A DNA stretch of 64,000 bases, from assembly GCA_031414595.1 (NCBI GenBank), contig JANNVX010000032.1, positions 6,947-70,946 of the forward strand, written 5' to 3'. Numbering within the stretch: position 1 is the first letter of the stretch; the number at the start of each line of letters is the position of its first letter. The position numbers and the translations under genes were made by a program. Below are positions 1 to 64,000 of the stretch, piece by piece. The stretch is from Deinococcales bacterium. Lineage in GTDB: Bacteria; Deinococcota; Deinococci; Deinococcales; JAAFIG01. The notes under the pieces are model-generated. The model was not told the origin of the DNA. It worked only from the letters and a program-made list of their open reading frames with translations, and did no database searches.

Positions 1-282
1 TTCCTTCGATTCTTTAAGCCTTCCGACCCGCTTGGATGGAATGGATCAAATTGTGGATATTCAGGGGTTTCGATCTCATTTGATGCTGTTGAAGTCCAAT
101 CGTTCTTTGCATGGCTGGGGCTTTAATAGTTATCAACAAGTTGCTTGTAGTTCTGATACAACTATTCCTTTTCCTAGCCTCATTCTTGGGATAACTTGGT
201 GAGATCATGATTTCAGTTCTGATTCCAGCCGCAGGAAGCGGCGAACGCCTCGGCTTAGGCGCTAAAGCATTAGGCAGTATTT

Positions 283-633
283 ATGATTAAGTCTGAGCAT
301 CCAGCAGGTGAACCAATCGCCTTTAAGCTCTTGCAAGGCTTTTTGTGGCATCCTAAAACCCTCGAGACAGTCACACTACCCACCGAATTACCTTCAGGGG
401 CGCTGATTGTCATGGACACGATAGAAGCACCGTTTGCGTTCTTTGAAGATGGCACTTGGACAGGGACTCAGGTCTTTTATCAACTGACGATTCTCGAGAT
501 TTTTGATGATTGGCTCGAGAATTCGGTGATTGCGGCTAGGGCAGTGCTTGCTTCAAACGAACTTACACCAATTCTTAATGCCACGCCAGTTGGTGTGGGT
601 TGGAGTTTATCCGAAGATTTACGTCCAGCTTAG
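283..633 (+). CDS. hypothetical acidic protein (116 aa)
   Basis: Uninterrupted ORF with a plausible composition. No motif recognised. Confidence 0.3.
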   Translation: MIKSEHPAGEPIAFKLLQGFLWHPKTLETVTLPTELPSGALIVMDTIEAPFAFFEDGTWTGTQVFYQLTILEIFDDWLENSVIAARAVLASNELTPILNATPVGVGWSLSEDLRPA

Positions 634-653
634 GTTGAAGCTCTACCCTCAGC

Positions 654-1067
654 TTAGGTTGAAGCTCTACTTTCTTTTTGTCGGGCTTCAACAATTTCTC
701 TGGTCGGGACTCGAGTCCAAACGTACCAAATGCCAATGCAGCCAAGCACAACCGTACCGATTTTTGCGACCAGTGGTGGGGCGATGATTGCGCTGATGGT
801 ACAAGAAGTGGCAATCATACAAAGCACCAAAATTTTGGTGCGGCGTTTCATGCCCAGTCCAGTGCGGTAATCTTTGACCATTTGCCCGATGACAGGTAGG
901 TTCAAAACCCATGTTTCAAAGCGTGGACTCGAGCGGGCAAAACAAGCCGCCGCCGCCACAAAAAACACTGTTCCAGGCATAACGGGTAAGTAATAGCCAA
1001 TAAAACCCAAAACCACGCAAACCCATCCAGCCGCGAACCATAACCAACGAGTGGGTGAGTTAGTCAT
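654..1067 (-). CDS. DUF454/YbaN-family inner membrane protein
   Basis: 137 aa, 3-4 TM helices. The YLPVMPGT...FF motif region is typical of YbaN/DUF454. Confidence 0.5.
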   Translation of the reverse strand: MTNSPTRWLWFAAGWVCVVLGFIGYYLPVMPGTVFFVAAAACFARSSPRFETWVLNLPVIGQMVKDYRTGLGMKRRTKILVLCMIATSCTISAIIAPPLVAKIGTVVLGCIGIWYVWTRVPTREIVEARQKESRAST

Positions 1068-1106
1068 TGGCTTAGCTTTTCCCTTTCCGGTTGGATAAAC
1101 GTCCCA

Positions 1107-1730
1107 TTATGGGTTTTGTGGGTCTGGTCGTTGTGGCATAAAAAACCACCGCTGCATACCTTCGGTGTAACCATTGCGAATTTCTGCGTAACGATTGCCG
1201 TTGCGTTTGGTAAAATAGGCAGTCAAGACATTCCAACCCTTTTGAAATTTCACATCTGAAACTTGTCGTCCTTCGCCAAAAATACAATCTTCTTTGATAA
1301 AACCTGTTCGATTGGCATAAAACCAAGCGGTTAATTTCAGGTCGCCTTGGTCAATTGCAGCTTCAAAATCGTTATTTGGAATTCGCCGACTGGTGTGCAT
1401 CATTTGTCCAATTACTCCAGAGTCATCCTTTACAATCACCGAGGCAATCGTTCCTAGTCGTAAACCAGCCGTTGCATCGCCACACGAATCATCAACTATT
1501 GGAGGCGATAGGGCATCTTCGGATAGCGTTTGAGGCAATTCAAAACTAAATTTTTTGTTTGCACCTATAGAACCTGCTTTTAGGGCAGTCTCGAGGTCAT
1601 TAAAACCATCTAAGCCAACGTATAAATCTGCCGCGCCTCCTCGGTAATCTAGGGCTTTACCTTTCCAAACCAAATTATCTGCCAGTACCGAGATTGCAAA
1701 AATCAAGATTAAGAATATCGCTCGAATCAT
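1107..1730 (-). CDS. secreted hypothetical protein
   Basis: N-terminal signal peptide MIRAIFLILIFAISVLA, 207 aa. Divergent from the amidohydrolase gene. Confidence 0.45.
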   Translation of the reverse strand: MIRAIFLILIFAISVLADNLVWKGKALDYRGGAADLYVGLDGFNDLETALKAGSIGANKKFSFELPQTLSEDALSPPIVDDSCGDATAGLRLGTIASVIVKDDSGVIGQMMHTSRRIPNNDFEAAIDQGDLKLTAWFYANRTGFIKEDCIFGEGRQVSDVKFQKGWNVLTAYFTKRNGNRYAEIRNGYTEGMQRWFFMPQRPDPQNP

Positions 1731-1753
1731 ACAAACAGATTACAATAGTTTTT

Positions 1754-4315: not shown

Positions 4316-5767
4316 GTGGGTATGAGTATGCTCGAATCTGTGCGTGATCGTTTGTTTCCTGATACTCCAGACGGGTCGGCAAAGCTGTGGCTTACGTCGT
4401 CTGTGGTCTGGGGGGTTATTGGCATGACCTTTGGTGTGTTCATGGCAATTTTGTTTGTCTTTCCAGAATTCACCAAAGGTGTGCCGTGGTTGTCGTTTAG
4501 TCGGATTCGTCCGTCACACGTCAACACCGTGGTGATGTCTTGGGTTTCGATGGCAAGCATTGGCTCGATGTTTTATATGTTGCCGCGCTTATTAAAGACT
4601 CCACTGGTTTCTGAGCGTCTGGGTACGGCGGTCGGTTGGTCTTGGAACGCCTTTGCCATCTGTATTCCGCTAACACTCTTAAATGGACTATCGGAAGGGC
4701 GCGAGTGGGCGGAGCTTGTTTGGTGGATGGATTGGTGGATGTTGATTAACCTTGGCTTGGTCGGTTATTTAACCTTTGCGACTGTGGCAAGACGCACCGA
4801 ACCACAATTGTACGTCTCGGTTTGGTATTGGATGGGTTCGATGGTTGGCATGACCTTGGTCTGGATTGTTGGCAACCGAACTTTTGTACCACTAGACGGA
4901 CTTAACGATGCGATTGCCAATTGGTTCTATGCCCACGATGTATTAGGATTATGGATTACCACCATGGGCATTGGAATTATTTACTACCTGTTGCCAAAAC
5001 TAACGGCTGGCAAGAATGGCGAACCGGGCAACCCTGTCTTTAGCCATAAAATGTCCTTGATTGGGTTCTGGGGAAATTTTGCCTTCTACACGGGTATTGG
5101 GGCGCATCACATTATTCAGTCGCCAGTTCCAGAATGGCTTAAAGCCTTTGCGATTGCCTCGAGTGTTTTAATGAGCATTCCAGTCTACTCGGCAAGTGCC
5201 AATTTTTTCTTAAGCACCCAAGGGCGTTGGGAGAACTTGGCTTGGAATTTACCGCTTCGATTTGTAACCTTTGGCTGGATTATGTACGCGCTCTCGAGTT
5301 TTCAGGGCAGTTTACAAGCAGTGCGTTCAATCAACTGGTATCAGCACTTCACGGGAATTGTCAGCGCTCACGCCCATTTAGCCATGCTTGGTGGCTTTAG
5401 CGTGGTGTTGTTTGCTAGTATTTATTACTGTATTCCGCGTCTTTACAAAGTCGAGTGGTACTCTAAAAAACTCGTGGTGGTGCATTTTTGGACGTTTACG
5501 GTTTCGTTTGTAATGTTCTTTTTGGTCTGGACAACCATGGGCTTTGTACAAGCCACCAGTTGGGTCATGGGGATTAACGTCCAACAAACCGTGCCATTTT
5601 TACAACCGTTTACCTTCACCCGCATGATTGCCGCGTTAGCGATGATTTTTTCGGTTTATATTTTTGCCTATAACGTGCTGCAAACTGTGCGGAGCGCTAA
5701 ACGTCAAGAGGCTTTTTCCGGAGCCAGAATTCCTTCAGCAGTTGCGCCTGCTGCGGCGGATGATTAG
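4316..5767 (+). CDS. ccoN: cbb3-type haem-copper oxidase subunit I (CcoN-like)
   Basis: 483 aa polytopic protein. His-ligand motifs GAHH and HAH are present. Followed by CcoO. SD GGAGGAAGG lies upstream. Confidence 0.75.
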   Translation: MGMSMLESVRDRLFPDTPDGSAKLWLTSSVVWGVIGMTFGVFMAILFVFPEFTKGVPWLSFSRIRPSHVNTVVMSWVSMASIGSMFYMLPRLLKTPLVSERLGTAVGWSWNAFAICIPLTLLNGLSEGREWAELVWWMDWWMLINLGLVGYLTFATVARRTEPQLYVSVWYWMGSMVGMTLVWIVGNRTFVPLDGLNDAIANWFYAHDVLGLWITTMGIGIIYYLLPKLTAGKNGEPGNPVFSHKMSLIGFWGNFAFYTGIGAHHIIQSPVPEWLKAFAIASSVLMSIPVYSASANFFLSTQGRWENLAWNLPLRFVTFGWIMYALSSFQGSLQAVRSINWYQHFTGIVSAHAHLAMLGGFSVVLFASIYYCIPRLYKVEWYSKKLVVVHFWTFTVSFVMFFLVWTTMGFVQATSWVMGINVQQTVPFLQPFTFTRMIAALAMIFSVYIFAYNVLQTVRSAKRQEAFSGARIPSAVAPAAADD

Positions 5768-5775
5768 GAGTTTTT

Positions 5776-6699
5776 ATGCTGAATCCTAAGAATGCAATTA
5801 TCGGGCTGATGTTTATGCTCCTTGTGACTGGTGTGACCAGTTTGGTGGTCGTCGTACCCGCCGCAACTTTTAATCCTGAGCCATCAGTTGGTTTACGCAA
5901 TTACACCGAAGCCGAGTTGCGTGGGCGCGAAGTTTTTAAGCGCGAGAACTGCTATGTTTGCCATAGTCAATTTGTGCGTTTTCAAGACGAAGGTGTTGGT
6001 CCAACTTCGCAAGCTGGCGACTTTGCCTACGACAATTCAAACTTGCTCGGCACGCTGCGAAATGGTCCGGATTTGACCTATGAAGGCGGCTTATACCCGG
6101 ACGAATGGCACATTGGGCATCTAAAAGCGCCGCGTTCGTACTTACCGGGCAGCTATATGCCAAGTTACAGTTACTTAGACTCTAAAGACATCAAAGACCT
6201 TGTGGCATTTATCCAAAGCCTTGGGACACGCAATACACGAGCTTGGGACACCAAAGATGTCAATGTCCCAGAAAAGTACCGCAATCTCGAGTCTCCACTT
6301 GGTCAGACGGCAGCAAATATCGGGGCTGGGCGTGGTATTTACAACCAGAATTGCTCGGCTTGTCACGGCTTTGAGGGTCGGGCAGATGTGCCTTTGGCAA
6401 AAATGTTCTATCCAAAACCAGCCGCCAATTTCCATTTGCCTCGTTATAAAGATTTTACCGACGGACACTGGTTTAATAAAGTCGCAAGGGGCGTACCGGG
6501 AACTCGGATGCCGCGCTGGGACCAAATTCTCAATTCTGAGCAAATGTGGTATGTCGTCACCTACCTAAAGTCTTTAGCAGCAGACCAAGACCTTGTGCCG
6601 AAAGCGGGACGGGAAAAGTATTACGACAAGTCAGTTTTGCAACCCGGAACAATCAAGAAAAAGTACGAAGGCGCACCTAAAGCGGGCGGTGGTCACTAA
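5776..6699 (+). CDS. ccoO: CcoO-like monohaem subunit fused to a second c-type cytochrome domain
   Basis: N-terminal TM helix. First CYVCHSQ...GPDL...MPSY region matches the FixO/CcoO pattern. A second CSACH haem motif sits in the C-terminal half. Confidence 0.7.
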   Translation: MLNPKNAIIGLMFMLLVTGVTSLVVVVPAATFNPEPSVGLRNYTEAELRGREVFKRENCYVCHSQFVRFQDEGVGPTSQAGDFAYDNSNLLGTLRNGPDLTYEGGLYPDEWHIGHLKAPRSYLPGSYMPSYSYLDSKDIKDLVAFIQSLGTRNTRAWDTKDVNVPEKYRNLESPLGQTAANIGAGRGIYNQNCSACHGFEGRADVPLAKMFYPKPAANFHLPRYKDFTDGHWFNKVARGVPGTRMPRWDQILNSEQMWYVVTYLKSLAADQDLVPKAGREKYYDKSVLQPGTIKKKYEGAPKAGGGH

Positions 6700-6992
6700 T
6701 GAAACATTTGGCTCGAGCCTTGGTTCTTGCTTGTTTCTCGAGTTTGGCATTTGCCGACCATGTGCCGGGCGTTGGCTTAAATTACAGTGGAACTTGGGTG
6801 GTGTTGATTGCTGTTGGTGTGATTTTTTCGCTTTTGATTTTGTCTTTGTTGTGGGCAGTTTTAGATGGGCAATTTCAGAATTCTGAACGGGTTAAATTTG
6901 CAGTGGCAGAGGTTAATGAAACCGATTTTATTCCGAGTATTGAGCGTCCGCAAGGCAATCTGGGTATTCAACGTCCGCAAGGCAAGAGGTGA
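6699..6992 (+). CDS. small membrane protein with C-terminal ERPQGN repeat
   Basis: TAATG-coupled to ccoO. One TM helix. The DNA carries a tandem copy of CGTCCGCAAGGCAA. Confidence 0.4.
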   Translation: MKHLARALVLACFSSLAFADHVPGVGLNYSGTWVVLIAVGVIFSLLILSLLWAVLDGQFQNSERVKFAVAEVNETDFIPSIERPQGNLGIQRPQGKR

Positions 6993-6995
6993 GTT

Positions 6996-7154
6996 ATGGC
7001 AGAGCAGAATAAAGACAACCACGACGACAACCATACCCACGAAATTGCTGGTATTCAAGTTGGCGAGAAAAACGTGCCAACCTCAGTGATTGCTGTGATT
7101 ATTTTCATTGTCTTTTTCGCCTTAATTTCTTGGATTGCACCACAGGGGTTTTGA
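6996..7154 (+). CDS. 52-aa single-TM protein, FixP_N/CcoQ-like
   Basis: Not in the ORF track (<60 aa). HTHEIAGIQ...TM helix resembles the CcoP N-terminal segment. Its stop overlaps the start of the next gene (TGATG). Confidence 0.35.
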   Translation: MAEQNKDNHDDNHTHEIAGIQVGEKNVPTSVIAVIIFIVFFALISWIAPQGF

Positions 7155-8158
7155 TGAAAAAAATCATAACACTCTTTCTAATCTCGAGTTTAGCCGCTTG
7201 TAGCGTACCGAGTAACGCCAATAATCCAGCCAAAGAAGCCGCCAAAAAAGGGGTTTTGTACATTCGTGAAGGCGAAAAACCACTTGAATTAAAAGTCGAA
7301 GAAGGCGCATATGACTGGAAGTACCCGAAGTACCCCGAAGATTACAAAGTTGATTTGAGTAACCGCGACCAAAACAACCAAACTTATATGTCTGGGCGGG
7401 AAATCACTTACCGAGCCAAACCCGATGGTCAACATAAAATGGACACTGCCTTGGCAGAATTTGGTTCATATGCAGGTCCTTGGCTCGAGGGCGAAGAAGC
7501 CTTGCTCTTACCAGTAGCCAACCCCAATGTGGTACTGGGTGACGCTTTAATCAAGAGTTTGGGGGCAGAAATCAAGCCCGAAATGCTGCCGACACTCGAA
7601 GAAACCCCTTTTCAGGCATACTTAAAATTGCGTGAACTTGGTAAGGACACGGAAGGTCGTCACCGCACTGTAACCATCGAATTAACTGGTGTGACTAACC
7701 CTTCGAGTGGCAAGCCCGAAAATGCCGAGTACGATGTTCAACTTGATAAAGAGGCTTTATGGAGCATTGCTTACGCTTTGTACCGCAAAATTCAACCTGA
7801 CTTTAAGACCAGAATTCCAACTCGAGAAGACCCGAAAAAACTACTCGATGGCGCATTGATTTACGGCAATTGCAACATGTGTCACGGCTCGGATGGTTGG
7901 GGCTTGGGCAAGAGTGGTCATAAGTTGCAACCACACCCAGCCAATTTTCATGAGCCAAGGCGTTTGTTTAATCGTTCTGATGCCAAACTGCGTGAAGTCT
8001 TGAAGCACGGAATTTACGGAAGTGCCATGCCACCGTGGGGTGACATACTCTCTGAAAATGAAATTAACCATGTGGTGGCATATATTCGTTCTTTTTCGTA
8101 CAGTCTCGAGCCACCAGTCTTGAATGTCAAACCACGTTTTAAGGGAGGTCAGCCATGA
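7154..8158 (+). CDS. lipoprotein with C-terminal monohaem cytochrome c domain (CcoP c-domain-like)
   Basis: Lipobox LAAC. CNMCH haem motif and a C-terminal cyt-c-like tail. Start trimmed to MKKIITL. Confidence 0.6.
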   Translation: MKKIITLFLISSLAACSVPSNANNPAKEAAKKGVLYIREGEKPLELKVEEGAYDWKYPKYPEDYKVDLSNRDQNNQTYMSGREITYRAKPDGQHKMDTALAEFGSYAGPWLEGEEALLLPVANPNVVLGDALIKSLGAEIKPEMLPTLEETPFQAYLKLRELGKDTEGRHRTVTIELTGVTNPSSGKPENAEYDVQLDKEALWSIAYALYRKIQPDFKTRIPTREDPKKLLDGALIYGNCNMCHGSDGWGLGKSGHKLQPHPANFHEPRRLFNRSDAKLREVLKHGIYGSAMPPWGDILSENEINHVVAYIRSFSYSLEPPVLNVKPRFKGGQP

Positions 8159-8183
8159 ACCTGACACTCAAGGGAGGTCAACC

Positions 8184-8837
8184 ATGATTGACCGCAGAAG
8201 TATCGTGAAAGGCATCACTATTTTGCCGCTTTTAGCTGTGGCTGGTGGGATTGGAACTGCCCTTTTATCGTTTCTTAAACCGACTTGGAAACCACTGGCT
8301 TTGCCTGTCACCGAAAAACCCTTAAATGAGGACAAAGTTGTTGGCACACTCGAGGAATTTGCTAAGGATTACGACTTTAAGGCGTTTGTATTCACGCAAA
8401 TTACCGTCGAATACACGGCTCGAGGGCGGGCGGCTACCGATGTGCTTGGTTATGCGGTTCGCATCCCCAATAACAGTTTAGCCGCCGCCGATGTGGGTGT
8501 TGGACCCAGTGGCTTACGCCGAGGCTACGGCGAAACTGATTACAATGGTCAAAAGTACAGCATTGTGGTGGTCTCAAGAATTTGCGCTCATTTGGGTTGT
8601 ATTTTTGAGTACCATCAACCTGCCGAAGTTTGTTCTGGCTTTAATTACTGTGGCGGCTCTACTCCAATGTTTTCTTGTCCGTGCCATTTATCGGTCTATG
8701 ACCCAGCCCAACAGCAAGATGTGGCTGGGGTTGGTAAATTACCCGGCAAGGTTGTCTCTGGTCCTGCGCCCCGCACTCCATTTCCTTTTGATTTTGAAAT
8801 TAAAGGCAATGAAATCATCGTCAAAAGCTACGGTTAA
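8184..8837 (+). CDS. Rieske iron-sulfur protein of a bc/b6f-type complex
   Basis: SD AGGGAGG then ATG. N-terminal TM helix. Rieske boxes CAHLGC and CPCHLS. Confidence 0.75.
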   Translation: MIDRRSIVKGITILPLLAVAGGIGTALLSFLKPTWKPLALPVTEKPLNEDKVVGTLEEFAKDYDFKAFVFTQITVEYTARGRAATDVLGYAVRIPNNSLAAADVGVGPSGLRRGYGETDYNGQKYSIVVVSRICAHLGCIFEYHQPAEVCSGFNYCGGSTPMFSCPCHLSVYDPAQQQDVAGVGKLPGKVVSGPAPRTPFPFDFEIKGNEIIVKSYG

Positions 8838-8849
8838 GGAGGAATACTT

Positions 8850-10157
8850 ATGGCAGCCCCCGCAGTTCCCGCAAAAAAAGCTGTTCCAAATGTTGGGCAA
8901 AAAATCGCCCAATGGTGGACTAAAAGTGCGCGTAATTTAGATTTATTTGACGAAAACCAAACCGATAAAGTTTTAACCGACCCGTGGTACATGCTTGGTG
9001 GGATGGCGTTGTTGTTTTGGTACATCACCATTGTGACAGGCACAGTTCTGATGTTTTTTTATGTGCCGGACACCTATCAGGCATGGCGCAGTGTGCGTGG
9101 AATGTTTGAAGGTGAACAGGGTTTTATTGTTGCCCTGATTCGCAATATGCACAAATACGGCGCAGATGCACTGATTATTGCCCTAACAATGCGAATTTAC
9201 CGCATGTACTTTAGGGGTGAATTTAAGAATTACAATCAGCTTTCCTATATGCTGACAATCATTGGCTTACTTTTAGCCATGTTTAGTGGTTTAACGGGTT
9301 ACTTGCTGATTTGGAATCAACGCGCACTGTGGGCAACCAAGGTTTTTGCGACCTTCCCAACTTTTGTGGATGATTTTCACAATATCCCGACGATCAAAGT
9401 CTTCCTAGCTCCGCTTGCTTATGTTCTCGAGCATACCCTCTCGAGTCTTAAAATTGGGGCTTTGACGGCTAATTTTATGCTGGCTGGTCAAAGTATCGGT
9501 CCAGCTACTTTGACCCGTTTTTACAGCGCCCATTTTATGCTTTCGATGCTGGCAATTTTGGCAATTGAAGCCTACTTTGCCCGTAAGGGACGCGGTGGTA
9601 AAATTGGTGAAGCGGCAGCCGGTGGTGGGGCTGGGCGCTTTAAGCGGATTAATTTACCGTGGTTTGCAGTGGTTTTTTGTTTTGTAATTCTGGTGGTAGT
9701 TTCGATTTGGGTTCCAGTGGATACGGGCAGCCCCGCGAACTACAGCGTTACGCCAAATCCGATTTTGTCCGACTGGTACTTTTTGGGGTTGTACCAAATG
9801 ATGAAGTGGTGGCAACCCGCCGTGGCAACCTTACAGACCGTTTTGCTTCCCTTGGTGGCTTTTATTGTCGTCTTTTTAGATTATAGCCCCGAACGCAATC
9901 CTTGGAAACGCCCGTTCTGGACAATGGTTGGAATTTACGGATTGGTCTCATGGTTGGCGTTTAGCATCCTGATTATTCTAAACATTGCCGACATTAAACG
10001 CGACCCACCTTATGTTTACTTGGTCAGCATGATTATGCTTGGGGCTGGCGCAATTTGGCACTGGGTCTTTATGGCAGGCGAACGCAAAAAACGCTTAAAA
10101 CTCGAGGCAGAAAAAGCCGCTAAAGCTGCTCTAGCCGCCCCACAAGCGGCTGATTAA
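8850..10157 (+). CDS. cytochrome b (long form) lacking both haem bH ligands
   Basis: Cyt b/b6 helix B and D motifs are present. First His is retained (NMHKYG, SAHFML). Residues at the +14 His positions are Arg and Tyr. Confidence 0.7.
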   Translation: MAAPAVPAKKAVPNVGQKIAQWWTKSARNLDLFDENQTDKVLTDPWYMLGGMALLFWYITIVTGTVLMFFYVPDTYQAWRSVRGMFEGEQGFIVALIRNMHKYGADALIIALTMRIYRMYFRGEFKNYNQLSYMLTIIGLLLAMFSGLTGYLLIWNQRALWATKVFATFPTFVDDFHNIPTIKVFLAPLAYVLEHTLSSLKIGALTANFMLAGQSIGPATLTRFYSAHFMLSMLAILAIEAYFARKGRGGKIGEAAAGGGAGRFKRINLPWFAVVFCFVILVVVSIWVPVDTGSPANYSVTPNPILSDWYFLGLYQMMKWWQPAVATLQTVLLPLVAFIVVFLDYSPERNPWKRPFWTMVGIYGLVSWLAFSILIILNIADIKRDPPYVYLVSMIMLGAGAIWHWVFMAGERKKRLKLEAEKAAKAALAAPQAAD

Positions 10158-10174
10158 GCGAAAGGAAAGCAATC

Positions 10175-10477
10175 ATGAAAGGAAGCACTTGGCTATTTAC
10201 CCTCGCCTCATTTGTTGGTGGCATCCTTGTCTTTTCAAGTGGCTACAACCAAGTGTTGCGCTACCTCGAGCAGCCGACTTGGACGGGCTTAGCGATGATT
10301 GCTTTTTGGTTGACTTTGCTGCTGTTTTTTGTGGTTACACTGGGGTTTATTATGTATGCCGTAGACCGCAAAGCTGGCAATGTACGGGTCAAAATCGCGT
10401 TATTTGAACGTTTACTGGGTTATTCTAAAGAGGCTGTTTTGCCAGAATCTCGAGAAAAAAATAAGGAGAATTCATGA
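10175..10477 (+). CDS. small membrane protein (2 TM)
   Basis: Hydrophobic 100-aa ORF with an SD. Lies within the coupled operon. Confidence 0.4.
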   Translation: MKGSTWLFTLASFVGGILVFSSGYNQVLRYLEQPTWTGLAMIAFWLTLLLFFVVTLGFIMYAVDRKAGNVRVKIALFERLLGYSKEAVLPESREKNKENS

Positions 10478-10845
10478 AGACAATCATCGCCATACTGCTG
10501 GTTTTAGGGGCGCTCGGACTTGCGCCTTTGACCATTGGGGCGTTCGCTCACGCCAATCCAGATTTTGGAACAGTTGATAAAACCTTATCTTCCGAAAATC
10601 CATACATTGTTCGTGAGGATGGAGCGCCAAAAATTCCAGAGCTTGCGGTGAGCTTGGTTAAAATTATTCGAGATACCGAAGGGGCGATTTCTGGGGCGTT
10701 GCTGCCAAACCTAAAATCCTTCCCATTTGAACGTGGCTTTGCGTATATGGGCTTAACTGTACTGCTGACTGCGATTGCTTCGGCACTGCTTGCCGATACG
10801 CGCAGTCAAACCCTCGTTAAACCTGGCAAGAGGAGGCTGGCATAA
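10474..10845 (+). CDS. exported protein (signal peptide)
   Basis: ATGA overlap with the upstream gene. Cleavable-looking N-terminus. Confidence 0.4.
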   Translation: MKTIIAILLVLGALGLAPLTIGAFAHANPDFGTVDKTLSSENPYIVREDGAPKIPELAVSLVKIIRDTEGAISGALLPNLKSFPFERGFAYMGLTVLLTAIASALLADTRSQTLVKPGKRRLA

Positions 10846-12032
10846 TGGCAGGTTACAGCGCCGACCAAGCCCCAACTTCTCGGGACAAAGGTTTTGATGC
10901 AGGTTTAGATGGTATCCATAAAGGTGTTGTTGCCGTAGACAAAGCCATCAATAAAGTCATCCCCGAAGAGTTCAATCCGTTTTATTACTTGGGCGGCATC
11001 ACCAATGTACTTTGGGTGCTGCTTGTGCCAACCGGCATTTTCTTGTGGTTTTACTATAAACCCACCACCTCAGAAGCCTTCTCGAGTGTTGATTATTTAA
11101 CCGTACAGGTCTTTTTTGGTGGTGTGATTCGCGGTATTCATCGTTATGCTGGCAATGGCATGATTTTATTGGCGGTGCTGCACATGTTGCGTAATTTCTT
11201 CACCGACCGTTACCGAGGCTTTAGAGATATCCCTTGGGTTTCTGGAGTTATCCTCTTGTTTCTAACTGGTTTCATTGGCTTGACTGGTTATTTGTTGGTT
11301 TGGGATCAACGCGCCTTGGTCATTACCGAAGCCTTGGTACAGATTTTACGCAGTTTTGACTTGGTGGTTGCTGGATTTGGCACTTGGTTAGCCAGAGGAC
11401 TCATCGGTGGTGACGAACCGAATAATTTAACCTTGGCTCGGATGCTGTTTTTGCATGTTGGACCTGCAGTGATGGTGTTCTTTTTCTTGTGGGTGCATTA
11501 TTTGCGTTTGCACCGCCCCAAAATCTGGCCTCCGGCTTTTGTAACGCTACTGACGATTGGCGCAGTTTTATTGGTGGCTGGTTTAGCACCACTCGAGAAA
11601 ACCTTGCCCGCCACACAACCGATTGTTGAAGGACAAGCTGCCATTGTCTATGACATTTTCTATTTGCTGCCTGTATTAGCGCTCTCGAGCATCAGCGCCC
11701 CTTGGATTTTGGCGATTCTACTGCTGCTTTTTGCGGTGATGTTTATTCTGCCTTGGATTCCAGCCAAAAAACACCGTTATGTCAATGTCGCAACCGTCAC
11801 CCCAGAAAACTGTACCGGTTGTCAACTCTGTGCTATTGACTGCCCGTTTGACGCAATCGTGATGGTTCCTGGAGCAAATCCAAATCCGCGTTATACCGAG
11901 TTAGCCGTGGTCAATGATGACAAATGTGCTGAATGTGGTATTTGCGTTGGTGCTTGCCCATTCCATGCAATCAATCTCCCGCTCATGGATGAATACACTG
12001 TGCGCGATAAGGTGGTGGCGTTACTTAAATGA
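10845..12032 (+). CDS. dihaem cytochrome b domain fused to 2x[4Fe-4S] ferredoxin domain
   Basis: Helix B has H..(13)..H (GIHRY...VLHML). Helix D has H..(13)..H (FLHVG...WVHYL). C-terminal CTGCQLCAIDCP and CAECGICVGACP motifs. Confidence 0.75.
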   Translation: MAGYSADQAPTSRDKGFDAGLDGIHKGVVAVDKAINKVIPEEFNPFYYLGGITNVLWVLLVPTGIFLWFYYKPTTSEAFSSVDYLTVQVFFGGVIRGIHRYAGNGMILLAVLHMLRNFFTDRYRGFRDIPWVSGVILLFLTGFIGLTGYLLVWDQRALVITEALVQILRSFDLVVAGFGTWLARGLIGGDEPNNLTLARMLFLHVGPAVMVFFFLWVHYLRLHRPKIWPPAFVTLLTIGAVLLVAGLAPLEKTLPATQPIVEGQAAIVYDIFYLLPVLALSSISAPWILAILLLLFAVMFILPWIPAKKHRYVNVATVTPENCTGCQLCAIDCPFDAIVMVPGANPNPRYTELAVVNDDKCAECGICVGACPFHAINLPLMDEYTVRDKVVALLK

Positions 12033-12517
12033 CACAAGCAACTGAACATATCCAACCCCAAGTTTTAGCCTTGAGTGGCAAACCCAAAATTTTTGGCTTT
12101 GTCTGCGAATGGAGCTTAGGACGCACCGATTACATCCATGAAGATGGCACGGTCAAAGGCATGGAGCATATCAAAACCCTTAAAATTCCTTGCTCGGGCT
12201 TTGTGAAAACCGAATGGGTCACGGTGGCATTTGAAAATGGCGCTCAAGGTGTGTTTGTGCTGGGTTGCCCACTCGGAGATTGCCATTTTAACGAAGGTAA
12301 CTTCATTATTAACGGCAGACTCGAGCAGCACACAGGCAGAATGGTCAACCGTAAAATCATTGACGAAGCTGGGCGCGTTGCCGAGCTTTACCTTGGTGTG
12401 ACTGGCAACAACGATTTCTTTACTCAACTCGAAGACTTCACCAAGTACATCAGCGACATGCCAGCCTTGGTAGTCGCTGCCAAAAAACCTCGGGCTGCGG
12501 CAGCCAAAAAGGAGTAA
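12029..12517 (+). CDS. MvhD/FlpD-like hydrogenase iron-sulfur subunit family protein
   Basis: Cys pattern CEWS...PCSGF...GCPLGDCHF, typical of the methyl-viologen-reducing hydrogenase delta subunit family. ATGA-coupled to the upstream gene. Confidence 0.6.
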   Translation: MTQATEHIQPQVLALSGKPKIFGFVCEWSLGRTDYIHEDGTVKGMEHIKTLKIPCSGFVKTEWVTVAFENGAQGVFVLGCPLGDCHFNEGNFIINGRLEQHTGRMVNRKIIDEAGRVAELYLGVTGNNDFFTQLEDFTKYISDMPALVVAAKKPRAAAAKKE

Positions 12518-17634: not shown

Positions 17635-17658
17635 TGATAACTCCTTTATACTGAACCT

Positions 17659-19380: not shown

Positions 19381-19595
19381 ATTGGTATGTAATATACTAC
19401 TTGAAGAAACTTGGGTTTGCAAGTCGTATCTATGCTTATTTTTAATTACTGATCGTAAAAAATTTGTGCTAGGCTCGAGTTATAGCGGGAGTCGCAATTT
19501 CTTTCAGTCGTAAAAATCTGGAGGCGGTGCTGTTATTCTCGCCAATTATTTATAGCCATGAATCATCAGTAAATTGCGATTCATACCGCTTTAGA

Positions 19596-24549: not shown

Positions 24550-24564
24550 GGGTAGAATACCGTC

Positions 24565-26727: not shown

Positions 26728-26743
26728 TCAGCTATAATTTCGT

Positions 26744-34327: not shown

Positions 34328-34330
34328 TTT

Positions 34331-48401: not shown

Positions 48402-48667
48402 ATTTTCCTCCAAAAAAGCTCGGCAACCAACAGACTTGGTTGCTACTAGGAGCAGACTATACAATTTTTACTCGAGCCATGCCGATAATTAGACTCGAGT
48501 CTATTTCATAATCCCTAACATCACCATTACTAAAACGGCAATTCCACCAAGCGTATTGACAACCGCCACGATTCGCATAAAGTTGCGCTGTATGGGCGGC
48601 ACCTTAGGTAGCACCGAAAAATAAAACATTCCAAAGCCTAAGAGTGCCACACCAAGAATCAGCGAAG

Positions 48668-49177
48668 TCATGTGCAGGGTCCACGCTCGGCGAGTTCATA
48701 GAAACCCTTGTTGTCGCCGTCGGTTATCAGTTCCTTGGCTTTACCGCCGGTCAAACCAGCCGCTTCATTGGCAGCCCAATTCATAAATTCACGGTTAAAG
48801 CCACTGTAACCACGGATAATTTTGCCATCCATACCAATTAAATAAATAGTTGGCAAAAACTTTGCGCCATACAACCCAGCCACAGCACAATTGTCGTGAG
48901 CCACTGGCATTTTTAAGTACAAGTTCTCGCCTTCGCCGACATACGTTTTGGTTTCCTCGAGCCGCCCTTCGGACAGCACCCAAACGGGGACACTTGGCGC
49001 AATTTCTGCCCAACGACGTAAGTACCCCACAACCAAGCGACTGGCGTTGATGACTGGATGGGCAAAAACCAACAAGACGGGAGCTTTGGATAGAGCTGCA
49101 CTTAAATCTAGGGTAACGCCGTTCAAATCGGTGGTGGTAAAATGCGGGGCAACTGTTCCCGCTTCAAGTATTTGCAT
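48668..49177 (-). CDS. redoxin (AhpC/TSA)-fold protein lacking active-site cysteines
   Basis: Start trimmed to MQILEAG after AAAGGAGA. Thioredoxin-fold pattern APHF...VLLVF, but HPVINAS replaces the CxxC position. Confidence 0.45.
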   Translation of the reverse strand: MQILEAGTVAPHFTTTDLNGVTLDLSAALSKAPVLLVFAHPVINASRLVVGYLRRWAEIAPSVPVWVLSEGRLEETKTYVGEGENLYLKMPVAHDNCAVAGLYGAKFLPTIYLIGMDGKIIRGYSGFNREFMNWAANEAAGLTGGKAKELITDGDNKGFYELAERGPCT

Positions 49178-49229
49178 AATCATTCTCCTTTTAGCAAGCG
49201 GTATTGTAACAGGCAAACGCAGGGCAATT

Positions 49230-50399
49230 TTACTTGGTTGGTGGGGCGCTCTGAATGGCTTTAACCACCGTTCCGGGGTACTGAGCGGTTTTGTACTGCA
49301 AGACATAATAATCGGCGGTTTGCCTGTCGCCATTGGCATTTAAGCGAATCCTTCCCGTCACTCCATCCCACTCGAGGGCGCGAACGGTACTGGCAACCTC
49401 GGCTCGAGATGGCAGTTTTTTGTTTTTCTCAAAAAGCTGGGCAACCGCTTCTAAAATCATATTGCTGGCATCAAAAGCATAGGGCGAATAGGTTTCTGGT
49501 GGACTTTGAAAAGCAGTTGTATAACGCTGCACAAAACCCTTGACATCACGTCCGCGTAAACCCAAAACAGGTCCCGCCGTAGAGGTAAAATAGACACCTT
49601 TAGCGGCTGCGCCCGCTAAACCAACAAAATTAGAATTGTCCAAACCATCTGGTCCAACAAATGCGGCTCGAGCTTGACTTAAAACTAGATTCTTGACCAA
49701 ATCTGCCCCTTGAACCTCTGTGCCGCCATAATAAATTACTTCGGGGTTATAGAGTTTAATCTGTTGGGTCACAGCCGCCAGTGCAGCTGTGCTGAGTTTA
49801 CCTTTGGGATTAGTGATAAACCCCACCACCGCTAAACCAATTGCCTTTGCTCGTTTTTGAAATGCCTGAGCGATTCCTAAACCGTAAGCATCGCCATCGT
49901 TAATCACCAAAACCCGACGGGCTTTTAAGGAACTGCGAATAAACTCGGCAGCCACAGGACCTTGCACATCATCACGCCCACAAACTCGGTTGACAAAACT
50001 TAAACCTTGGTCGGTGACTAAGGGATTGGTATTTGAAGGCGAAACCAGTACCAAATTAGCACTTTTATAAATCGGTAATGCCTCGAGGGTCACACCACTG
50101 TTCATATGACCGACCAGACCTAAAACACGGCTATCAATCACAATTTTACGCGCCACCAACACCCCTGTGGCTGGCAGGGCTTGGTCATCCAAAGCCAGTA
50201 ACTCGAGTTTAAGCCCGAGTTTTGTAAACCGAGACTGCGCCTCCAAGACCGCTAACTGCGCCCCATTGCGAACCGTAGTACCAGTGTTGGCTTGTTCACC
50301 AGAAAGCGGCGCAGCCACCGCCAAGCGCACCACTGGCACGGACTGCCCCAAAGCTGAGGTGATCAGCGCCAGCCCCACCAATCCAAAAAACCATTTCAT
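49230..50399 (-). CDS. ABC transporter substrate-binding protein (branched-chain amino acid, LivJ-like)
   Basis: Signal peptide. Periplasmic-binding type I fold signature. 389 aa. Confidence 0.7.
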   Translation of the reverse strand: MKWFFGLVGLALITSALGQSVPVVRLAVAAPLSGEQANTGTTVRNGAQLAVLEAQSRFTKLGLKLELLALDDQALPATGVLVARKIVIDSRVLGLVGHMNSGVTLEALPIYKSANLVLVSPSNTNPLVTDQGLSFVNRVCGRDDVQGPVAAEFIRSSLKARRVLVINDGDAYGLGIAQAFQKRAKAIGLAVVGFITNPKGKLSTAALAAVTQQIKLYNPEVIYYGGTEVQGADLVKNLVLSQARAAFVGPDGLDNSNFVGLAGAAAKGVYFTSTAGPVLGLRGRDVKGFVQRYTTAFQSPPETYSPYAFDASNMILEAVAQLFEKNKKLPSRAEVASTVRALEWDGVTGRIRLNANGDRQTADYYVLQYKTAQYPGTVVKAIQSAPPTK

Positions 50400-50431
50400 T
50401 CTAGGCAGTATAGCAAAGCGTAAGATAAAGC

Positions 50432-51322
50432 GTGGCTGTCTTTATTGTTAATAAACCCCTAGGCTGGACTTCATTTGATGTGGTCGCTAAAGCCAGAAAA
50501 TTACTCAGTACAAAACGCATCGGGCATACAGGAACACTCGACCCACTGGCGACGGGTGTGCTGGTGCTATTAACCGATGAAAGCACCAAACTTGTGCCGT
50601 ACTTAGAGATTGCCGACAAGGACTATTTGGCGTTTATCAGTTTAGGCGCAAGTACCCCAACGCTCGATGCCGAAGGACCAATTCTCGAGACTATGCCTGT
50701 CGAAAACATATCCCCTTGGAGAGTAGAAGAAGTTCTTGAAAAATTTACAGGTAAACAAATGCAGCTTCCTCCAAATTACAGTGCTATTCATATTAACGGA
50801 CAACGGGCTTATGACCTTGCAAGGGCTGGAAAAGAAGTCAAACTCGAGCTTAGAGAAGTGAATATTAAGCGCTTGATACTGCTTGGTTCAATGGATTCAA
50901 TGCAGGAAGCTCACCGTTATTCTGATTCACAATTTCCGACTCAACTAGGTGAACTTCTAACCCTTACGCTCGAGATTAGCGTTTCGAGCGGTACATACAT
51001 CCGCAGTTTAGCCCGTGACCTCGGTGTTGCCCTTGGTACAGCGGCGCATTTGGGCGGTTTGGTACGCACCCGAGTTGGCAAGTTTAACTTAAGCCAAGCC
51101 ATTGCCCTCGAGCAACTAGAACCCAGCCTAGGACTACCCGACTTAAGCGCCCTTGAGTACCCTGTCATCGAACTTAGCGCCAAAGAAGCCCGAGACCTCA
51201 AAGACGGCAAACGCATCCCAAACCCAAACCTAGGGCGCTATACCGTCACTTTTGACGATAAGCTGATTGCCATCGCCGAAGCCGACGGCTCGAGCCTAAA
51301 AGCCCTGCGCGTTTGGCAGTGA
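50432..51322 (+). CDS. truB: tRNA pseudouridine(55) synthase
   Basis: GHTGTLDPLATGVL catalytic motif. PUA-less 296-aa form. Confidence 0.85.
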   Translation: MAVFIVNKPLGWTSFDVVAKARKLLSTKRIGHTGTLDPLATGVLVLLTDESTKLVPYLEIADKDYLAFISLGASTPTLDAEGPILETMPVENISPWRVEEVLEKFTGKQMQLPPNYSAIHINGQRAYDLARAGKEVKLELREVNIKRLILLGSMDSMQEAHRYSDSQFPTQLGELLTLTLEISVSSGTYIRSLARDLGVALGTAAHLGGLVRTRVGKFNLSQAIALEQLEPSLGLPDLSALEYPVIELSAKEARDLKDGKRIPNPNLGRYTVTFDDKLIAIAEADGSSLKALRVWQ

Positions 51323-51368
51323 GAAGGCGAAGGGCAAAGGGCAAAGGGCGAAAGTAAAAACCTTTGCC
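51323..51368. terminator. hairpin/repeat GAAGGGCAAAGGGCAAAGGGCGAAAG...CCTTTGCC
   Basis: Lies between convergent truB and the HD-GYP gene. Related to the repeat at 42990-43015. Confidence 0.4.
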
Positions 51369-52612
51369 TATTTCGTATCATTGCGAGCAATTAACTCAGC
51401 GATGATATTGCGGTCAATCTCACCACTGAGATTGATTTGCAGCACCGCTTCAGAAACCTTTTGATCGGACATGGCTTCAATAAAAAGCGGCACAAGTTCG
51501 GGGTCAAAATGTGTGCCAATGTCTTTTTTGAGAATTTCAAAAGTGGCTTCCCAAGACTTGGGGGTGCTGTAGGGGCGGGCGGTGGTCATGGCATCAAAAG
51601 CATCGGAAATACCAACCATTCGGGCTAATAACGGAATATCCGTGCCAGATAAGCCATCAGGGTAGCCGCGTCCATCCCAGCGTTCATGGTGCGAACGGAT
51701 TGAAGAGAGAATCCCTTCAAAACCCTTGGTGTTATTGCGAAGTAGCTTTTCGCCAATGACGGTGTGCTGCTCGAGAATGGTGCGTTCTTCTTGGGTCAGT
51801 TGTCCAGTTTTATGGAGATACACATCTCGAATACCAATTTTACCGATGTCATGGACAAAACCAGCAAATAACGCCCGCTCGAGGTCAGCAGTATCCCAAT
51901 TTAATTTCTCGGCGAGTTTACGGGTGTACAAGCCCACCCTGTCCGAATGACCAGCCGTGTACTCATCCCGAGCTTCAAGGGTATTGAGCATCATTTTGAC
52001 CAAATTGACATAATTTTCGTGTTCTTGTTGGATACTTCGGGCTAAAGTAACAGCCACACCTGCTTGCGCCGCAAAGCCATTTAAGATGCTCGAGTCGGAT
52101 TCAGTAAAGGCGCGTTGGGTGAATTGCGTATCGACATACAAGACCCCAATCACATCATCCCGCGCTCGAAGCGGCACTGCCAAGACACTGCGAATATCCA
52201 GTGCCAGAATGCTTTCTGAGGCACTATGCCCCATGTCTTCTTGGACATTGGTGGTGATGATGCTCTGTTTGGTGGTCACAACCCGTTCCAAGAGCGTCCT
52301 CGAGACTTGCACCTCATCGTGTGAATCTTTAGAACAACTGTCCACCACTTGCACCGAACCATGCTCGACTAAGGCAAGCGCTCCTCGGTCTGCCTGCATT
52401 AAACGCACTGCTTCGGTCAGCATGTCCTGAAAAAGCGTAATCACATCGAAACTATCACGCACCCCAGATAATTTCATGCCTAAGCTCTGAAAAGCAGTCA
52501 GCGCACTGCGCTCCGCCTCGAGTTCACGCACAATGGTACGCACCCGCCCGCCAACTTGTGGCGGAAGCAAAGACGAAATTTGAGAAAGTTGCTCGAGAGG
52601 ACTGGCAGGCAC
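51368..52612 (-). CDS. GAF + HD-GYP domain c-di-GMP phosphodiesterase-type protein
   Basis: HDIGKI and HHERWDGRGYPDGL motifs. N-terminal GAF-like domain. Confidence 0.75.
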   Translation of the reverse strand: MPASPLEQLSQISSLLPPQVGGRVRTIVRELEAERSALTAFQSLGMKLSGVRDSFDVITLFQDMLTEAVRLMQADRGALALVEHGSVQVVDSCSKDSHDEVQVSRTLLERVVTTKQSIITTNVQEDMGHSASESILALDIRSVLAVPLRARDDVIGVLYVDTQFTQRAFTESDSSILNGFAAQAGVAVTLARSIQQEHENYVNLVKMMLNTLEARDEYTAGHSDRVGLYTRKLAEKLNWDTADLERALFAGFVHDIGKIGIRDVYLHKTGQLTQEERTILEQHTVIGEKLLRNNTKGFEGILSSIRSHHERWDGRGYPDGLSGTDIPLLARMVGISDAFDAMTTARPYSTPKSWEATFEILKKDIGTHFDPELVPLFIEAMSDQKVSEAVLQINLSGEIDRNIIAELIARNDTK

Positions 52613-52775
52613 AATCCTAGTTTACTCGAGAATTGGAATTAAATGGGCGAATTTGCACACAGTTGCTTGAACCACAATAAAAAAGCCCGAGCGCTTAGGC
52701 TCGAGCTTTTTAGATATTCACAAAATTTTTAATCAACTCGAGAAAAAATGGCTACCTCGAGACTCCTAGCCCTTA

Positions 52776-62585: not shown

Positions 62586-62648
62586 GATTATCTCCTTGGC
62601 TCGAGAAGCCTCGAGCAACATCTTATTTTAACGCTTCTCGAGTAGACT

Positions 62649-63269
62649 TTGGGCATGACACAAACATTAGAGCGACCACAAAAACAACCCGAGCCAATGA
62701 ATGTTGTCCAAAACCAACCAAGACCTGTTGGGCAGTCTCGAGTTTTACCATTAACTGTTGTGCAGTACGAAGCCCTTATCGAACAAGGGTTAATGCCAGA
62801 GCGAGTCGAACTGATTAAAGGAGCAATAACGATTATGGCACCAATGGGAGATGCACACATTATTTCACTTGATGGTTTTGCCGACATTTTAAGGCAAAAA
62901 TTTCGGACTCGAGCCAGAATTACATCACAAACACCAGTCCGATTGACCGAGGCTTTTGGCGAACCCGAACCAGATTTTATGCTTTGTAAATTAGGCTCTA
63001 AAGGCGTGACCAACCCCGAAGATGTGCTTTTAGTGATTGAAATTTCAAAAAGCACATTGGATACTGACCGCGCTGACAAACTACCAATGTACGCCCAGCA
63101 CAGTATTTCAGAAGTCTGGATTCATAACCTGAACAACAATAATTTAGAGGTTTACCGCAACCCGCGTCTGGTCTCGAGTGGCTGGGCTTATGATGCGCCA
63201 ATTGTCTTTGAACATGGACAGCAGGTTGCTCCACTTGCCTTTCCCGAAGATTTGCTCGAGTGGTGGTGA
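62649..63269 (+). CDS. Uma2-family (DUF820) putative endonuclease
   Basis: PD-(D/E)xK-like core with PDFML...EVW motifs typical of Uma2. Confidence 0.6.
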   Translation: MGMTQTLERPQKQPEPMNVVQNQPRPVGQSRVLPLTVVQYEALIEQGLMPERVELIKGAITIMAPMGDAHIISLDGFADILRQKFRTRARITSQTPVRLTEAFGEPEPDFMLCKLGSKGVTNPEDVLLVIEISKSTLDTDRADKLPMYAQHSISEVWIHNLNNNNLEVYRNPRLVSSGWAYDAPIVFEHGQQVAPLAFPEDLLEWW

Positions 63270-63308
63270 TAATGTGGTACAAAATTGTTTTTGTGGTACA
63301 CTTAGCCC

Positions 63309-63542
63309 ATGAACACGGTACGCCTCGAGCCTGAACTCAAAGCCAAAATCCAGAAACTCGCCCAATTACAAAATATCACCCAATCAGAATTACAACGCCG
63401 AGCGCTTGAATTGTATGTTGAACAAACAGCAGTTGTACAAAGCCGATTCGAGGATATGTTCGGTGTAGCTAGTGGTTCAGCAGAATTATCTGAACACGTC
63501 AAAGAAGAATTTGCCTTACTGATGGCACAAAAACATGACTGA
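63309..63542 (+). CDS. ribbon-helix-helix type antitoxin (VapB/ParD-like)
   Basis: 77 aa with an N-terminal RHH-like segment. Overlaps the PIN gene. Confidence 0.45.
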   Translation: MNTVRLEPELKAKIQKLAQLQNITQSELQRRALELYVEQTAVVQSRFEDMFGVASGSAELSEHVKEEFALLMAQKHD

Positions 63543-63882
63543 AATTCTGATTGATACAGGACCAATTTTAGCGGCGCTGAATCGGCAAGACAAACACCAT
63601 CTTTTTGCCGTAGAAACCATGCGTCAATACAATCAGCCTTTTTTGACGACTGTCGCAGTAATGACTGAAGTCATGTACCTGACGCAACAACGACTCGGTT
63701 GGTACGCTGCCGAAAAATTACTAGAAATTGTCAACCGTGGTGATATTATTGTACAGCACATTGGTCTTGCCGATTTTCAAAGAATTTCTGTACTGATGAA
63801 AAAATACCTTGATTTACCAATGGATTTTGCTGATGCAACCCTTGTGGCACTGGCAGAACGCTTAGGATTTGTCCCAGAATAA
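63535..63882 (+). CDS. vapC: PIN-domain toxin (VapC-like)
   Basis: N-terminal ILIDTGPILA with a conserved Asp. Acidic residues downstream. 115 aa. Confidence 0.6.
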   Translation: MTEILIDTGPILAALNRQDKHHLFAVETMRQYNQPFLTTVAVMTEVMYLTQQRLGWYAAEKLLEIVNRGDIIVQHIGLADFQRISVLMKKYLDLPMDFADATLVALAERLGFVPE

Positions 63883-64000
63883 CTTCCCGATTTCAAGAAT
63901 AGTGTCATTCGGTTCTCGGTTTGGTAAAGTCATTTGAATGCAGACCTACTCACTAAAAGTCAAAAATATGATGTTACGGCTGTACCAGTCACTTAATGAA

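Follow-up and report, generated by a model that had tools for sequence, protein, structure and literature searches.

This stretch of 64,000 bases (48.3% GC) from a Deinococcales bacterium, called the window below, raises the question of why one palindromic hexamer, CTCGAG, recurs all along it, and at which level the force behind it acts. We read CTCGAG as a palindrome of the highly iterated palindrome (HIP) type, present at about 5-9 copies per kb throughout a clade, read by a protein like those of restriction-modification (R-M) systems, probably a methyltransferase, and serving a DNA transaction. We assign this reading a probability of roughly 0.55. In practical terms, XhoI would cut such DNA into fragments of about 190 bp.

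Abundance and placement of CTCGAG in the window

An exact count gave 340 copies of CTCGAG in the 64,000 bases, which is equal to 5,312 per Mb, with a mean spacing of about 186-188 bp and a median of 126. The expectation was 14.5 copies from base composition, 7.4 under an order-1 Markov model, and 18.3 under an order-2 model, corresponding to observed-to-expected ratios (O/E) of 23, 46, and 19, respectively. Markov orders above 2 were uninformative because such models absorb the motif itself. CTCGAG was the most frequent hexamer, three times as abundant as any other, and the next six hexamers were one-base shifts of it. All sixteen 4-kb bins contained the motif, with 9-38 copies each, and the counts at the 1-kb scale were near Poisson (variance/mean ratio 1.04). 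Genes were taken from a simple model of longest open reading frames (ORFs), which gave 61 genes covering 90% of the window. They held 313 copies, compared with 24.3 ± 4.3 under a synonymous shuffle, in which codons were permuted among all genes while the protein sequences and the motif-inflated codon usage were retained. A preliminary description of this DNA had reported that the hexamer recurs every 150-200 bp or so and is over-represented across the window. The k-mer count with Markov expectation that it proposed (340 copies against 7-18) confirmed this, with every 4-kb bin occupied, and its estimate of about 17 copies in the first 3 kb proved exact.

The base frequencies at the 12 positions flanking the motif (-6 to -1 and +1 to +6) were near background, and 81% of the copies had no palindromic extension of any kind. 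CTCGAG is therefore a bare hexamer and not the core of a repeat element; a dispersed repeat of the repetitive extragenic palindrome or miniature inverted-repeat transposable element type (REP/MITE) was excluded, as the copies share no sequence outside the core. The motif had also been placed in terminator loops. This was not general, given the 81% without extension and the single intergenic site (48494) lying in a longer palindrome:

48490..48503, no strand assigned: the sole intergenic CTCGAG inside a longer perfect palindrome (TAGACTCGAGTCTA), from the palindrome-extension scan

The 8-mer extension GCTCGAGC was not favoured in the window, where it made up 5% of sites against 6% expected. Among the related loci described below, it was partly favoured in L006 and L211 (17-29% of sites against 7-8% expected) and accounted for 14-15% of sites in L008 and L086 (7-10% expected). 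This partial extension in some members of higher GC content resembles the lineage-specific extensions of HIP1, the HIP of cyanobacteria (PMC4390886).

The preliminary description had found the motif in all codon phases, on both strands and between genes, and this was upheld. The coding copies comprised 192 in the phase CTC-GAG (Leu-Glu), 60 as xCT-CGA-Gxx, and 61 as xxC-TCG-AGx, in genes of both strands, and a further 27 copies were intergenic, at 4.4 per kb compared with 5.4 per kb in coding DNA. CTC-GAG spelled 68% of the Leu-Glu dipeptides, while about 2% was expected from context-free codon use; outside the motif, about 9% of the leucines were encoded by CTC and about 21% of the glutamates by GAG. 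The Leu-Glu dipeptide itself occurred 282 times against 126 expected from amino-acid frequencies, and Glu-Leu 118 times.

A preference at the translational or protein level, that is, selection for Leu-Glu or for the CTC-GAG codon pair, would fit the 61% of coding sites in the Leu-Glu phase and the 2.2-fold enrichment of this dipeptide. However, the remaining 39% of coding sites fall into the two other phases, where the peptides encoded are unrelated, intergenic DNA has about 80% of the density of coding DNA, CTC and GAG are minor codons outside the motif, and Glu-Leu is not enriched. A preference for the codon pair or the dipeptide was contradicted by the phase, intergenic, and shuffle tests, and we consider any protein-level explanation very improbable. 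The phases, the strands, the intergenic copies, and the override of codon and dipeptide use show that the force works at the level of DNA and not of RNA or protein, and that it overrides synonymous codon choice and, where tolerated, amino acids. A signal at the DNA level can thus distort protein composition far, with Leu-Glu doubled here.

The field as a whole, its densest stretch, and its sparse stretch are as follows:

1..64000, no strand assigned: dispersed field of 340 CTCGAG copies (counts against Markov and shuffle nulls)
16693..19422, minus strand: densest CTCGAG stretch (per-gene counts; Pfam)
16693-17799, minus strand: gene for a pyridoxal-phosphate (PLP)-dependent enzyme, 16 CTCGAG sites, 14.5 per kb (Pfam)
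18262-19422, minus strand: M20 peptidase gene, 14 CTCGAG sites, 12.1 per kb (Pfam)
4316..12517, plus strand: sparse stretch with 1-4 sites per kb, a respiratory cluster of a COX1/FixO-like oxidase and cytochromes c and b (Pfam)

Three gaps of 0.86-1.0 kb without CTCGAG were found in the respiratory cluster, and the gene at 4316-5767 had 2 sites (Poisson p = 0.017). A 631-aa ORF at 19830-21725, which had no Pfam match, was also poor in the motif (1.6 per kb, Poisson p = 0.01). Both stretches may reflect a stronger protein constraint, as in membrane proteins poor in Leu-Glu, or a later acquisition.

Distribution, retention and turnover of the sites

One protein of the window was compared with one genome per GTDB species:

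39566..41794, plus strand: NarB-like molybdopterin oxidoreductase gene, 17 CTCGAG sites, the test gene for the cross-genome comparison

The closest relatives of this protein were eight loci from metagenome-assembled genomes (MAGs) labelled "Deinococcales bacterium", with 83-63% amino-acid identity and a GC content of 46-62%. CTCGAG was the top hexamer in all eight, at 4.9-8.7 per kb. The next matches, from cyanobacteria, Chloroflexota, and others at about 61% identity, had essentially no CTCGAG. The narB orthologues of the nine clade genomes carried 12-19 sites each, compared with a mean of 0.19 in 72 orthologues from outside. The outside orthologues had a normal Leu-Glu count (5.3 versus 6-18 in the clade), which is a further point against a preference at the protein level. 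The best matches of the NarB-like gene outside the clade (about 60-62%, loci L010-L081) came from cyanobacteria and Chloroflexota and not from other Deinococcota, a pattern of sequence matches that hints at an old horizontal transfer.

With TruB of the window as the query, loci at 95, 75, 58, 56, and 53% identity had 4.6-7.7 CTCGAG per kb at a GC content of up to 63%. Deinococcus taeanensis, whose TruB is 54% identical, had 2 sites in 21 kb (0.1 per kb), and the contig of a 49% identical homologue had zero. The density in locus L087 was 0. With AroA of the high-GC locus L086 as the query, L211 (67% identical) had 6.2 per kb and L212 (62%) had 0.9 per kb, and judged by these AroA sequences the boundary of the clade lies between 67 and 62% identity to L086. 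A density of 4.6-8.7 CTCGAG per kb was found in at least 14 related loci of 46-63% GC that bear the label of an uncultured "Deinococcales bacterium" or were inferred to belong there, and the trait is independent of GC content. In the searches with TruB of the window and AroA of L086, only unnamed or "MAG: Deinococcales bacterium" proteins stood above the Deinococcus level, the Deinococcus species started at 52-54% TruB identity, and no Truepera was among the matches. No close homologue was from a named cultured species, and the trait therefore defines a deep, so far uncultured clade of Deinococcales, roughly at the family level. The idea of a genome-wide, HIP1-like oligonucleotide bias instead of a codon-pair preference, for which the preliminary description had suggested a check of relatives, is supported by the phases, the intergenic copies, the codon-aware nulls, the sharing by at least 14 clade loci with almost none in Deinococcus, and the conservation of sites described below.

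The enrichment was also found in viral sequences. IMG/VR was scanned for three CTCGAG within about 90 bases, which returned mostly chance matches and a sample biased by the search pattern. Five contigs (L206, L182, L188, L140, and L101; 8-14 kb, GC 58-68%) had CTCGAG as the top hexamer, at about 3-7 per kb. L140 (IMGVR_UViG_3300005289_000104) has a gene for a clear portal protein (E = 4e-101) in which 8 CTCGAG sites lie, and L188 (IMGVR_UViG_3300012033_000164) gave weaker portal and head-morphogenesis matches. The portal and head genes on CTCGAG-rich contigs therefore indicated that the enrichment extends to phage or prophage DNA. There were no tblastx matches between these contigs and the clade loci examined, and Pfam found a ParB protein and no methyltransferase among their ORFs. 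CTCGAG is a near-perfect k-mer signature for binning the clade and its phages from metagenomes, and its density also marks recently acquired genes.

The preliminary description had considered an engineered or post-processed sequence, and further forms of artefact would be contamination with linkers or adapters and a mobile repeat with dispersed copies. CTCGAG is the site at which XhoI cuts in cloning, many of the other palindromes known as restriction sites are missing from the window, and the 28 of 64 palindromic hexamers that are absent have a summed expectation of about 390, close to the 340 copies of CTCGAG. However, a 5,313-base contig of the independent Logan assembly SRR20217191, which contains the NarB-like gene and its neighbours with 32 CTCGAG sites, is identical to the window. 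The same enrichment was present in NCBI, ENA, and JGI MAGs from different projects and sequencing centres. Together with the identical assembly, this refuted the engineered alternative. Moreover, the sites lie in frame within conserved genes and align via substitutions and not insertions, the flanks show no conservation and hence no repeat element, and the depletion of the other palindromes is graded and not all-or-none. We give next to no credence to an artefact of any of these kinds.

The retention of CTCGAG was then compared with that of control hexamers in the same alignments of the window to its relatives:

L208, closest relative, 91% nucleotide identity: 17/19 sites retained (89%) versus 62% for controls, p = 0.009
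L082, 76% nucleotide identity: 16/18 sites retained (89%) versus 30% for controls, p = 3e-7
L003, about 76% nucleotide identity: 33/54 sites retained (61%) versus 24% for controls, p = 7e-9
More distant relatives, about 65% identity: 20-67% retained (small samples of 4-11 sites) versus about 10% for controls
48494..52692, no strand assigned: stretch alignable to L208 and L082 that was used for retention (nucleotide alignment)

The individual positions did change, however. The narB genes of the nine clade genomes had 62 distinct CTCGAG positions, many of them private to one or two genomes, and the sharing of positions dropped with distance. The sites arise by substitution, often a non-synonymous one. 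Silent cases occur where Leu-Glu or Ser-Arg-Gly is invariant and only certain genomes write it with the motif; in a non-synonymous example, Leu-Ser in 55 of the 72 outgroups became Leu-Glu in 8 of the 9 clade genomes, all eight with CTCGAG. An origin by insertion of six bases (Leu-Glu) was ruled out by these substitutions in orthologues, with a single gap-associated case. The density of CTCGAG is thus conserved while its positions turn over.

For one-base variants, 15 loci of the clade were pooled (the window, L002-L009, L082, L083, L085, L086, L208, and L211), with 299,877 bases and 1,799 sites. The 18 variants together occurred 1,250 times, where 936 occurrences were expected. A clear rise was seen only for the six variants derived by transitions (1.3-2.35-fold) and for CTCGAT (1.65-fold), the other transversion variants were near expectation, and none was depleted. 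The excess amounted to about 0.17 variants per CTCGAG site, whereas neutral decay would be expected to give about one decaying copy per site, which argues that perfect sites are actively maintained. The sites also mildly avoided each other. Spacings of 6-20 bp occurred 67 times against 143 expected under an exponential model, and the coefficient of variation of the spacing was below 1 in 14 of the 15 loci (0.76-0.95 in those 14), with 0.90 in the window. This is what we would expect of a locally saturating benefit or of the footprint of a mechanism.

The main rival to our reading is a purely neutral drive, in which a repair or mutation bias converts near-sites to CTCGAG and restores damaged ones with no benefit, which would leave the motif as a by-product. 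Examples are the methyl-directed mismatch-repair ratchet of Elhai and a very-short-patch repair that is coupled to a cytosine methyltransferase. Such a drive would account for sites wherever they can be accommodated, even at a cost in amino acids, for the turnover of positions at constant density, and for the enrichment in phage-like contigs, as if anything replicating in these cells were exposed. The high retention, like the phage signal, is explained equally well by such a drive, and a bias that restores sites would account for the small halo of one-base variants, too. However, the classical Vsr signature is missing. The T-containing variants were not depleted over the pooled 300 kb but enriched 1.3-1.85-fold (TTCGAG 1.69, CTCGAA 1.85, CTTGAG 1.74, and CTCAAG 1.31), and the lack of depletion in both pairs, TTCGAG/CTCGAA and CTTGAG/CTCAAG, contradicts a T:G to C:G repair of the Vsr type. 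In addition, no vsr or cytosine methyltransferase gene was found in the window and the 300 kb, which is a small search space, the deficit of closely spaced sites is not expected under a neutral drive, and comparable evidence for HIP1 has been interpreted as selection (PMC5861425). We regard a purely neutral drive as rather unlikely.

Candidate reader and comparison with known systems

Only the perfect 6-bp palindrome appears to be favoured, with one-base variants reaching at most about 2.3-fold compared with 20-45-fold for the site itself. Transcription factors and nucleoid proteins tolerate degeneracy, and Type II R-M proteins discriminate sharply. The sharpness seen here therefore suggests a reader with the discrimination of the Type II R-M proteins. 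Considering also that methyltransferases accompany the cyanobacterial HIPs, the predicted reader would most probably be a solitary DNA methyltransferase of CTCGAG or of the inner TCGA. Marked sites that are dense and evenly spread could then serve a genome-wide DNA transaction, for which strand or self discrimination in mismatch repair, recombination, and the uptake of kin DNA are candidates. Selection, or a repair bias coupled to the reader, would keep the density of CTCGAG high.

Three points weigh against a HIP-type palindrome with such a reader. The excess retention can also be produced by a mutational attractor acting separately in both lineages, so that selection is not proven by it, and the spacing deficit was obtained against an exponential null and not a coding-aware one. 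Furthermore, the window and the 300 kb of clade DNA yielded neither a methyltransferase specific for CTCGAG or TCGA nor Vsr or any other reader. Pfam searches of about 48 ORFs of the window found no Type II methyltransferase, restriction enzyme, or Vsr and only Type I R-M. A motif scan of 219 ORFs in the 300 kb found, besides a chance match, only HsdM with an amino-methyltransferase motif. The Vsr-like or methyltransferase driver proposed in the preliminary description was thus not confirmed, as neither the window nor the 300 kb held one and the T-variant depletion predicted by Vsr was not seen.

By the definitions of Elhai (2015) and Xu et al. (2018), the HIP class comprises short palindromes with an O/E of about 15-300 that are the top oligomer of their length. 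CTCGAG had an O/E of 19-46 and a three-fold lead over the other hexamers, occurred in every coding frame and also outside coding DNA, which neither peptides nor RNA explain, and was shared by a lineage in which orthologous sites were conserved above controls. Its behaviour matches that of the HIP class on abundance, placement, lineage sharing, and site conservation. HIPs are likewise short palindromes that are over-represented tens-fold in every frame and in non-coding DNA throughout a lineage, with sites conserved above control oligomers and a motif identity that can differ by lineage (PMC4390886, PMC5861425). The cyanobacterial HIPs include HIP1 (GCGATCGC) and the alternates GGCGCC in Calothrix PCC 7103, GGGATCCC in Synechococcus JA-3-3Ab, and CAGGCCTG in Synechococcus PCC 6312, and each of the alternates occurs together with a methyltransferase that has the same specificity (PMC4390886). 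Selection conserves the HIP1 sites (PMC5861425), and a quasi-periodic distribution with periods of 10-90 kb is a feature of the HIP class. A role of HIP1 has been proposed in methyl-directed mismatch repair (PMC4390886) and in chromosome organisation (PMC5861425).

HIP1 proper, however, belongs to cyanobacterial hosts and has a GATC/CGATCG core, whereas CTCGAG occurs in Deinococcota, contains neither GATC nor CGATCG, and shares the window with zero copies of CGATCG. With the wrong phylum and no such core, it is therefore HIP-like only and not HIP1 itself. The densities also differ, with 300-2,700 per Mb for HIP1 and 4,600-8,700 per Mb for CTCGAG, and the one-base variants of HIP1 are common and conserved while those of CTCGAG are barely enriched. 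CTCGAG looks like an independent counterpart of the cyanobacterial HIP1 in another phylum and with another sequence. A full-text literature search, which had incomplete coverage and gives absence of evidence only, did not turn up any account of such an abundance of CTCGAG in Deinococcota or other bacteria; its matches dealt with CpG motifs of the honey bee, methylation in giant viruses, and surveys of methylomes instead.

To our knowledge, HIP1 has been without an agreed function for about 30 years, and we know of no HIP outside one phylum. The function is unsettled partly because of this restriction to one phylum, in which causal traits cannot be told apart from those inherited along with them. 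The same behaviour (action at the DNA level, excess retention, and constant density with turnover) in a second lineage, unrelated and with another palindrome, permits a direct comparative test. Such a test would look for genes shared by HIP-bearing cyanobacteria and this clade and absent from HIP-less sisters such as Deinococcus, among them solitary methyltransferases, partners of MutS and MutL, and competence or recombination proteins.

Two other systems in which enzymes affect site frequencies were compared. In Escherichia coli, Dcm and Vsr raise CCWGG and lower CTWGG, which may be analogous to CTCGAG in that the frequency of an R-M-type site is shaped by a sequence-specific enzyme. But the effect there is well under two-fold with a depleted T-variant, while CTCGAG is enriched 20-45-fold and its T-variants mildly. 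Restriction-site avoidance is present here for other palindromes such as GGCC and GATC, and CTCGAG goes in the opposite direction.

Uptake sequences are established for Neisseria and Haemophilus. Like CTCGAG, the DNA uptake sequence (DUS) of Neisseria and the uptake signal sequence (USS) of Pasteurellaceae are genome-wide, lineage-specific oligomers found in genic and intergenic DNA at a conserved density. In contrast to CTCGAG, which is a symmetric hexamer at 5-9 per kb (5.3 per kb in the window) with background flanks, they are asymmetric 9-12-mers with conserved flanks, occur about once per kb, frequently as pairs in terminators, and have a known competence reader. CTCGAG might nevertheless be a tag for kin recognition or DNA uptake, in which the hexamer, probably methylated, marks clade DNA that the competence or recombination machinery prefers. 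The same hexamer occurs across a deep clade of 46-63% GC, as a shared exchange signal predicts, and a selected density rather than position, together with the mild even spacing, would fit recognition per fragment. Deinococcus and Thermus relatives are naturally transformable. For HIP1 itself such a tag has been proposed; it is reported to raise natural transformation depending on methylation, and recognition of kin DNA is among the current proposals. On the other hand, the known uptake sequences are longer, non-palindromic, and sparser, and a hexamer, of which foreign DNA has a chance copy every 4 kb, discriminates only weakly if neither density nor methylation is read. We consider an uptake tag an unlikely explanation, more so than the neutral drive.

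As a tentative and rather doubtful extension of the HIP-type reading, the clade may have an independently evolved HIP-like system in which a methylated hexamer every 150-200 bp or so is a mark of 'own DNA' for mismatch repair, recombinational repair, or transformation. Selection would then rewrite about 1% of the dipeptides, and the mark would be imposed on the phages of the clade. If this were true, HIP-type motifs would be a general, convergent solution and not a cyanobacterial oddity, and the clade would be an independent replicate for finding the machinery common to both.

Restriction-modification genes, palindrome avoidance and minor features

The genes of the window are ordinary chromosomal ones and include those for the respiratory oxidase, cytochromes, malate synthase, NarB, TruB, PyrF, an IspE-like protein, and adenine deaminase, among others. 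The R-M genes form one operon (21817-28496):

21817-24549: hsdR of the Type I R-M operon (Pfam)
24565-25192: MNT/HepT (nucleotidyltransferase/HEPN) toxin-antitoxin pair, between hsdR and hsdS (Pfam)
25189-26727: hsdS, 14 CTCGAG sites (Pfam)
27027-28496: hsdM of the Type I R-M operon, the sole DNA methyltransferase gene in the window (Pfam)

This operon is not a recent arrival because its CTCGAG density is normal.

Many palindromes other than CTCGAG were scarce in the window. GGCC had 2 copies against 217-329 expected, GATC 29 against 182-249, and CCGG 60 against about 200, and the 28 palindromic hexamers without any copy include AAGCTT (27 expected) and TGCGCA (28 expected). This avoidance was common to a low-GC subclade (L082, L208, and L211) and was not found in the higher-GC members L083, L085, and L086. 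It points to long exposure to many restriction systems, one of them specific for GGCC, and is a phenomenon separate from the CTCGAG enrichment. As the other palindromes show the usual response to restriction pressure, the opposite behaviour of CTCGAG is all the more pointed.

Three tandem tRNA-like genes were found at 34166-34404 on the minus strand, and one of them contains the motif:

34357..34362, no strand assigned: CTCGAG copy in a tRNA-like element, within an Rfam tRNA match at 34331-34404

With 54 bits in Rfam, only the tRNA-Thr(TGT) of the three had a normal score. The second, a 'tRNA-Phe(GAA)' of 89 bases, scored 35 bits; its variable arm is long and its acceptor stem is A/T-rich. The third, at 34331-34404 (minus), reached 30.4 bits against a threshold of 29, contains CTCGAG, and was not called by ARAGORN. 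The CTCGAG that had been reported inside a tRNA-like element at 34359 thus does lie in a borderline tRNA match, although its true position is 34357-34362 and ARAGORN does not recognise the element. These tRNA-like genes may be degenerate tRNAs or tRNAs derived from mobile elements. In the clade member L085 (GC 61%), a bacteriorhodopsin-family protein was encoded at 207-1058 near xanthine-dehydrogenase-like genes (Pfam).

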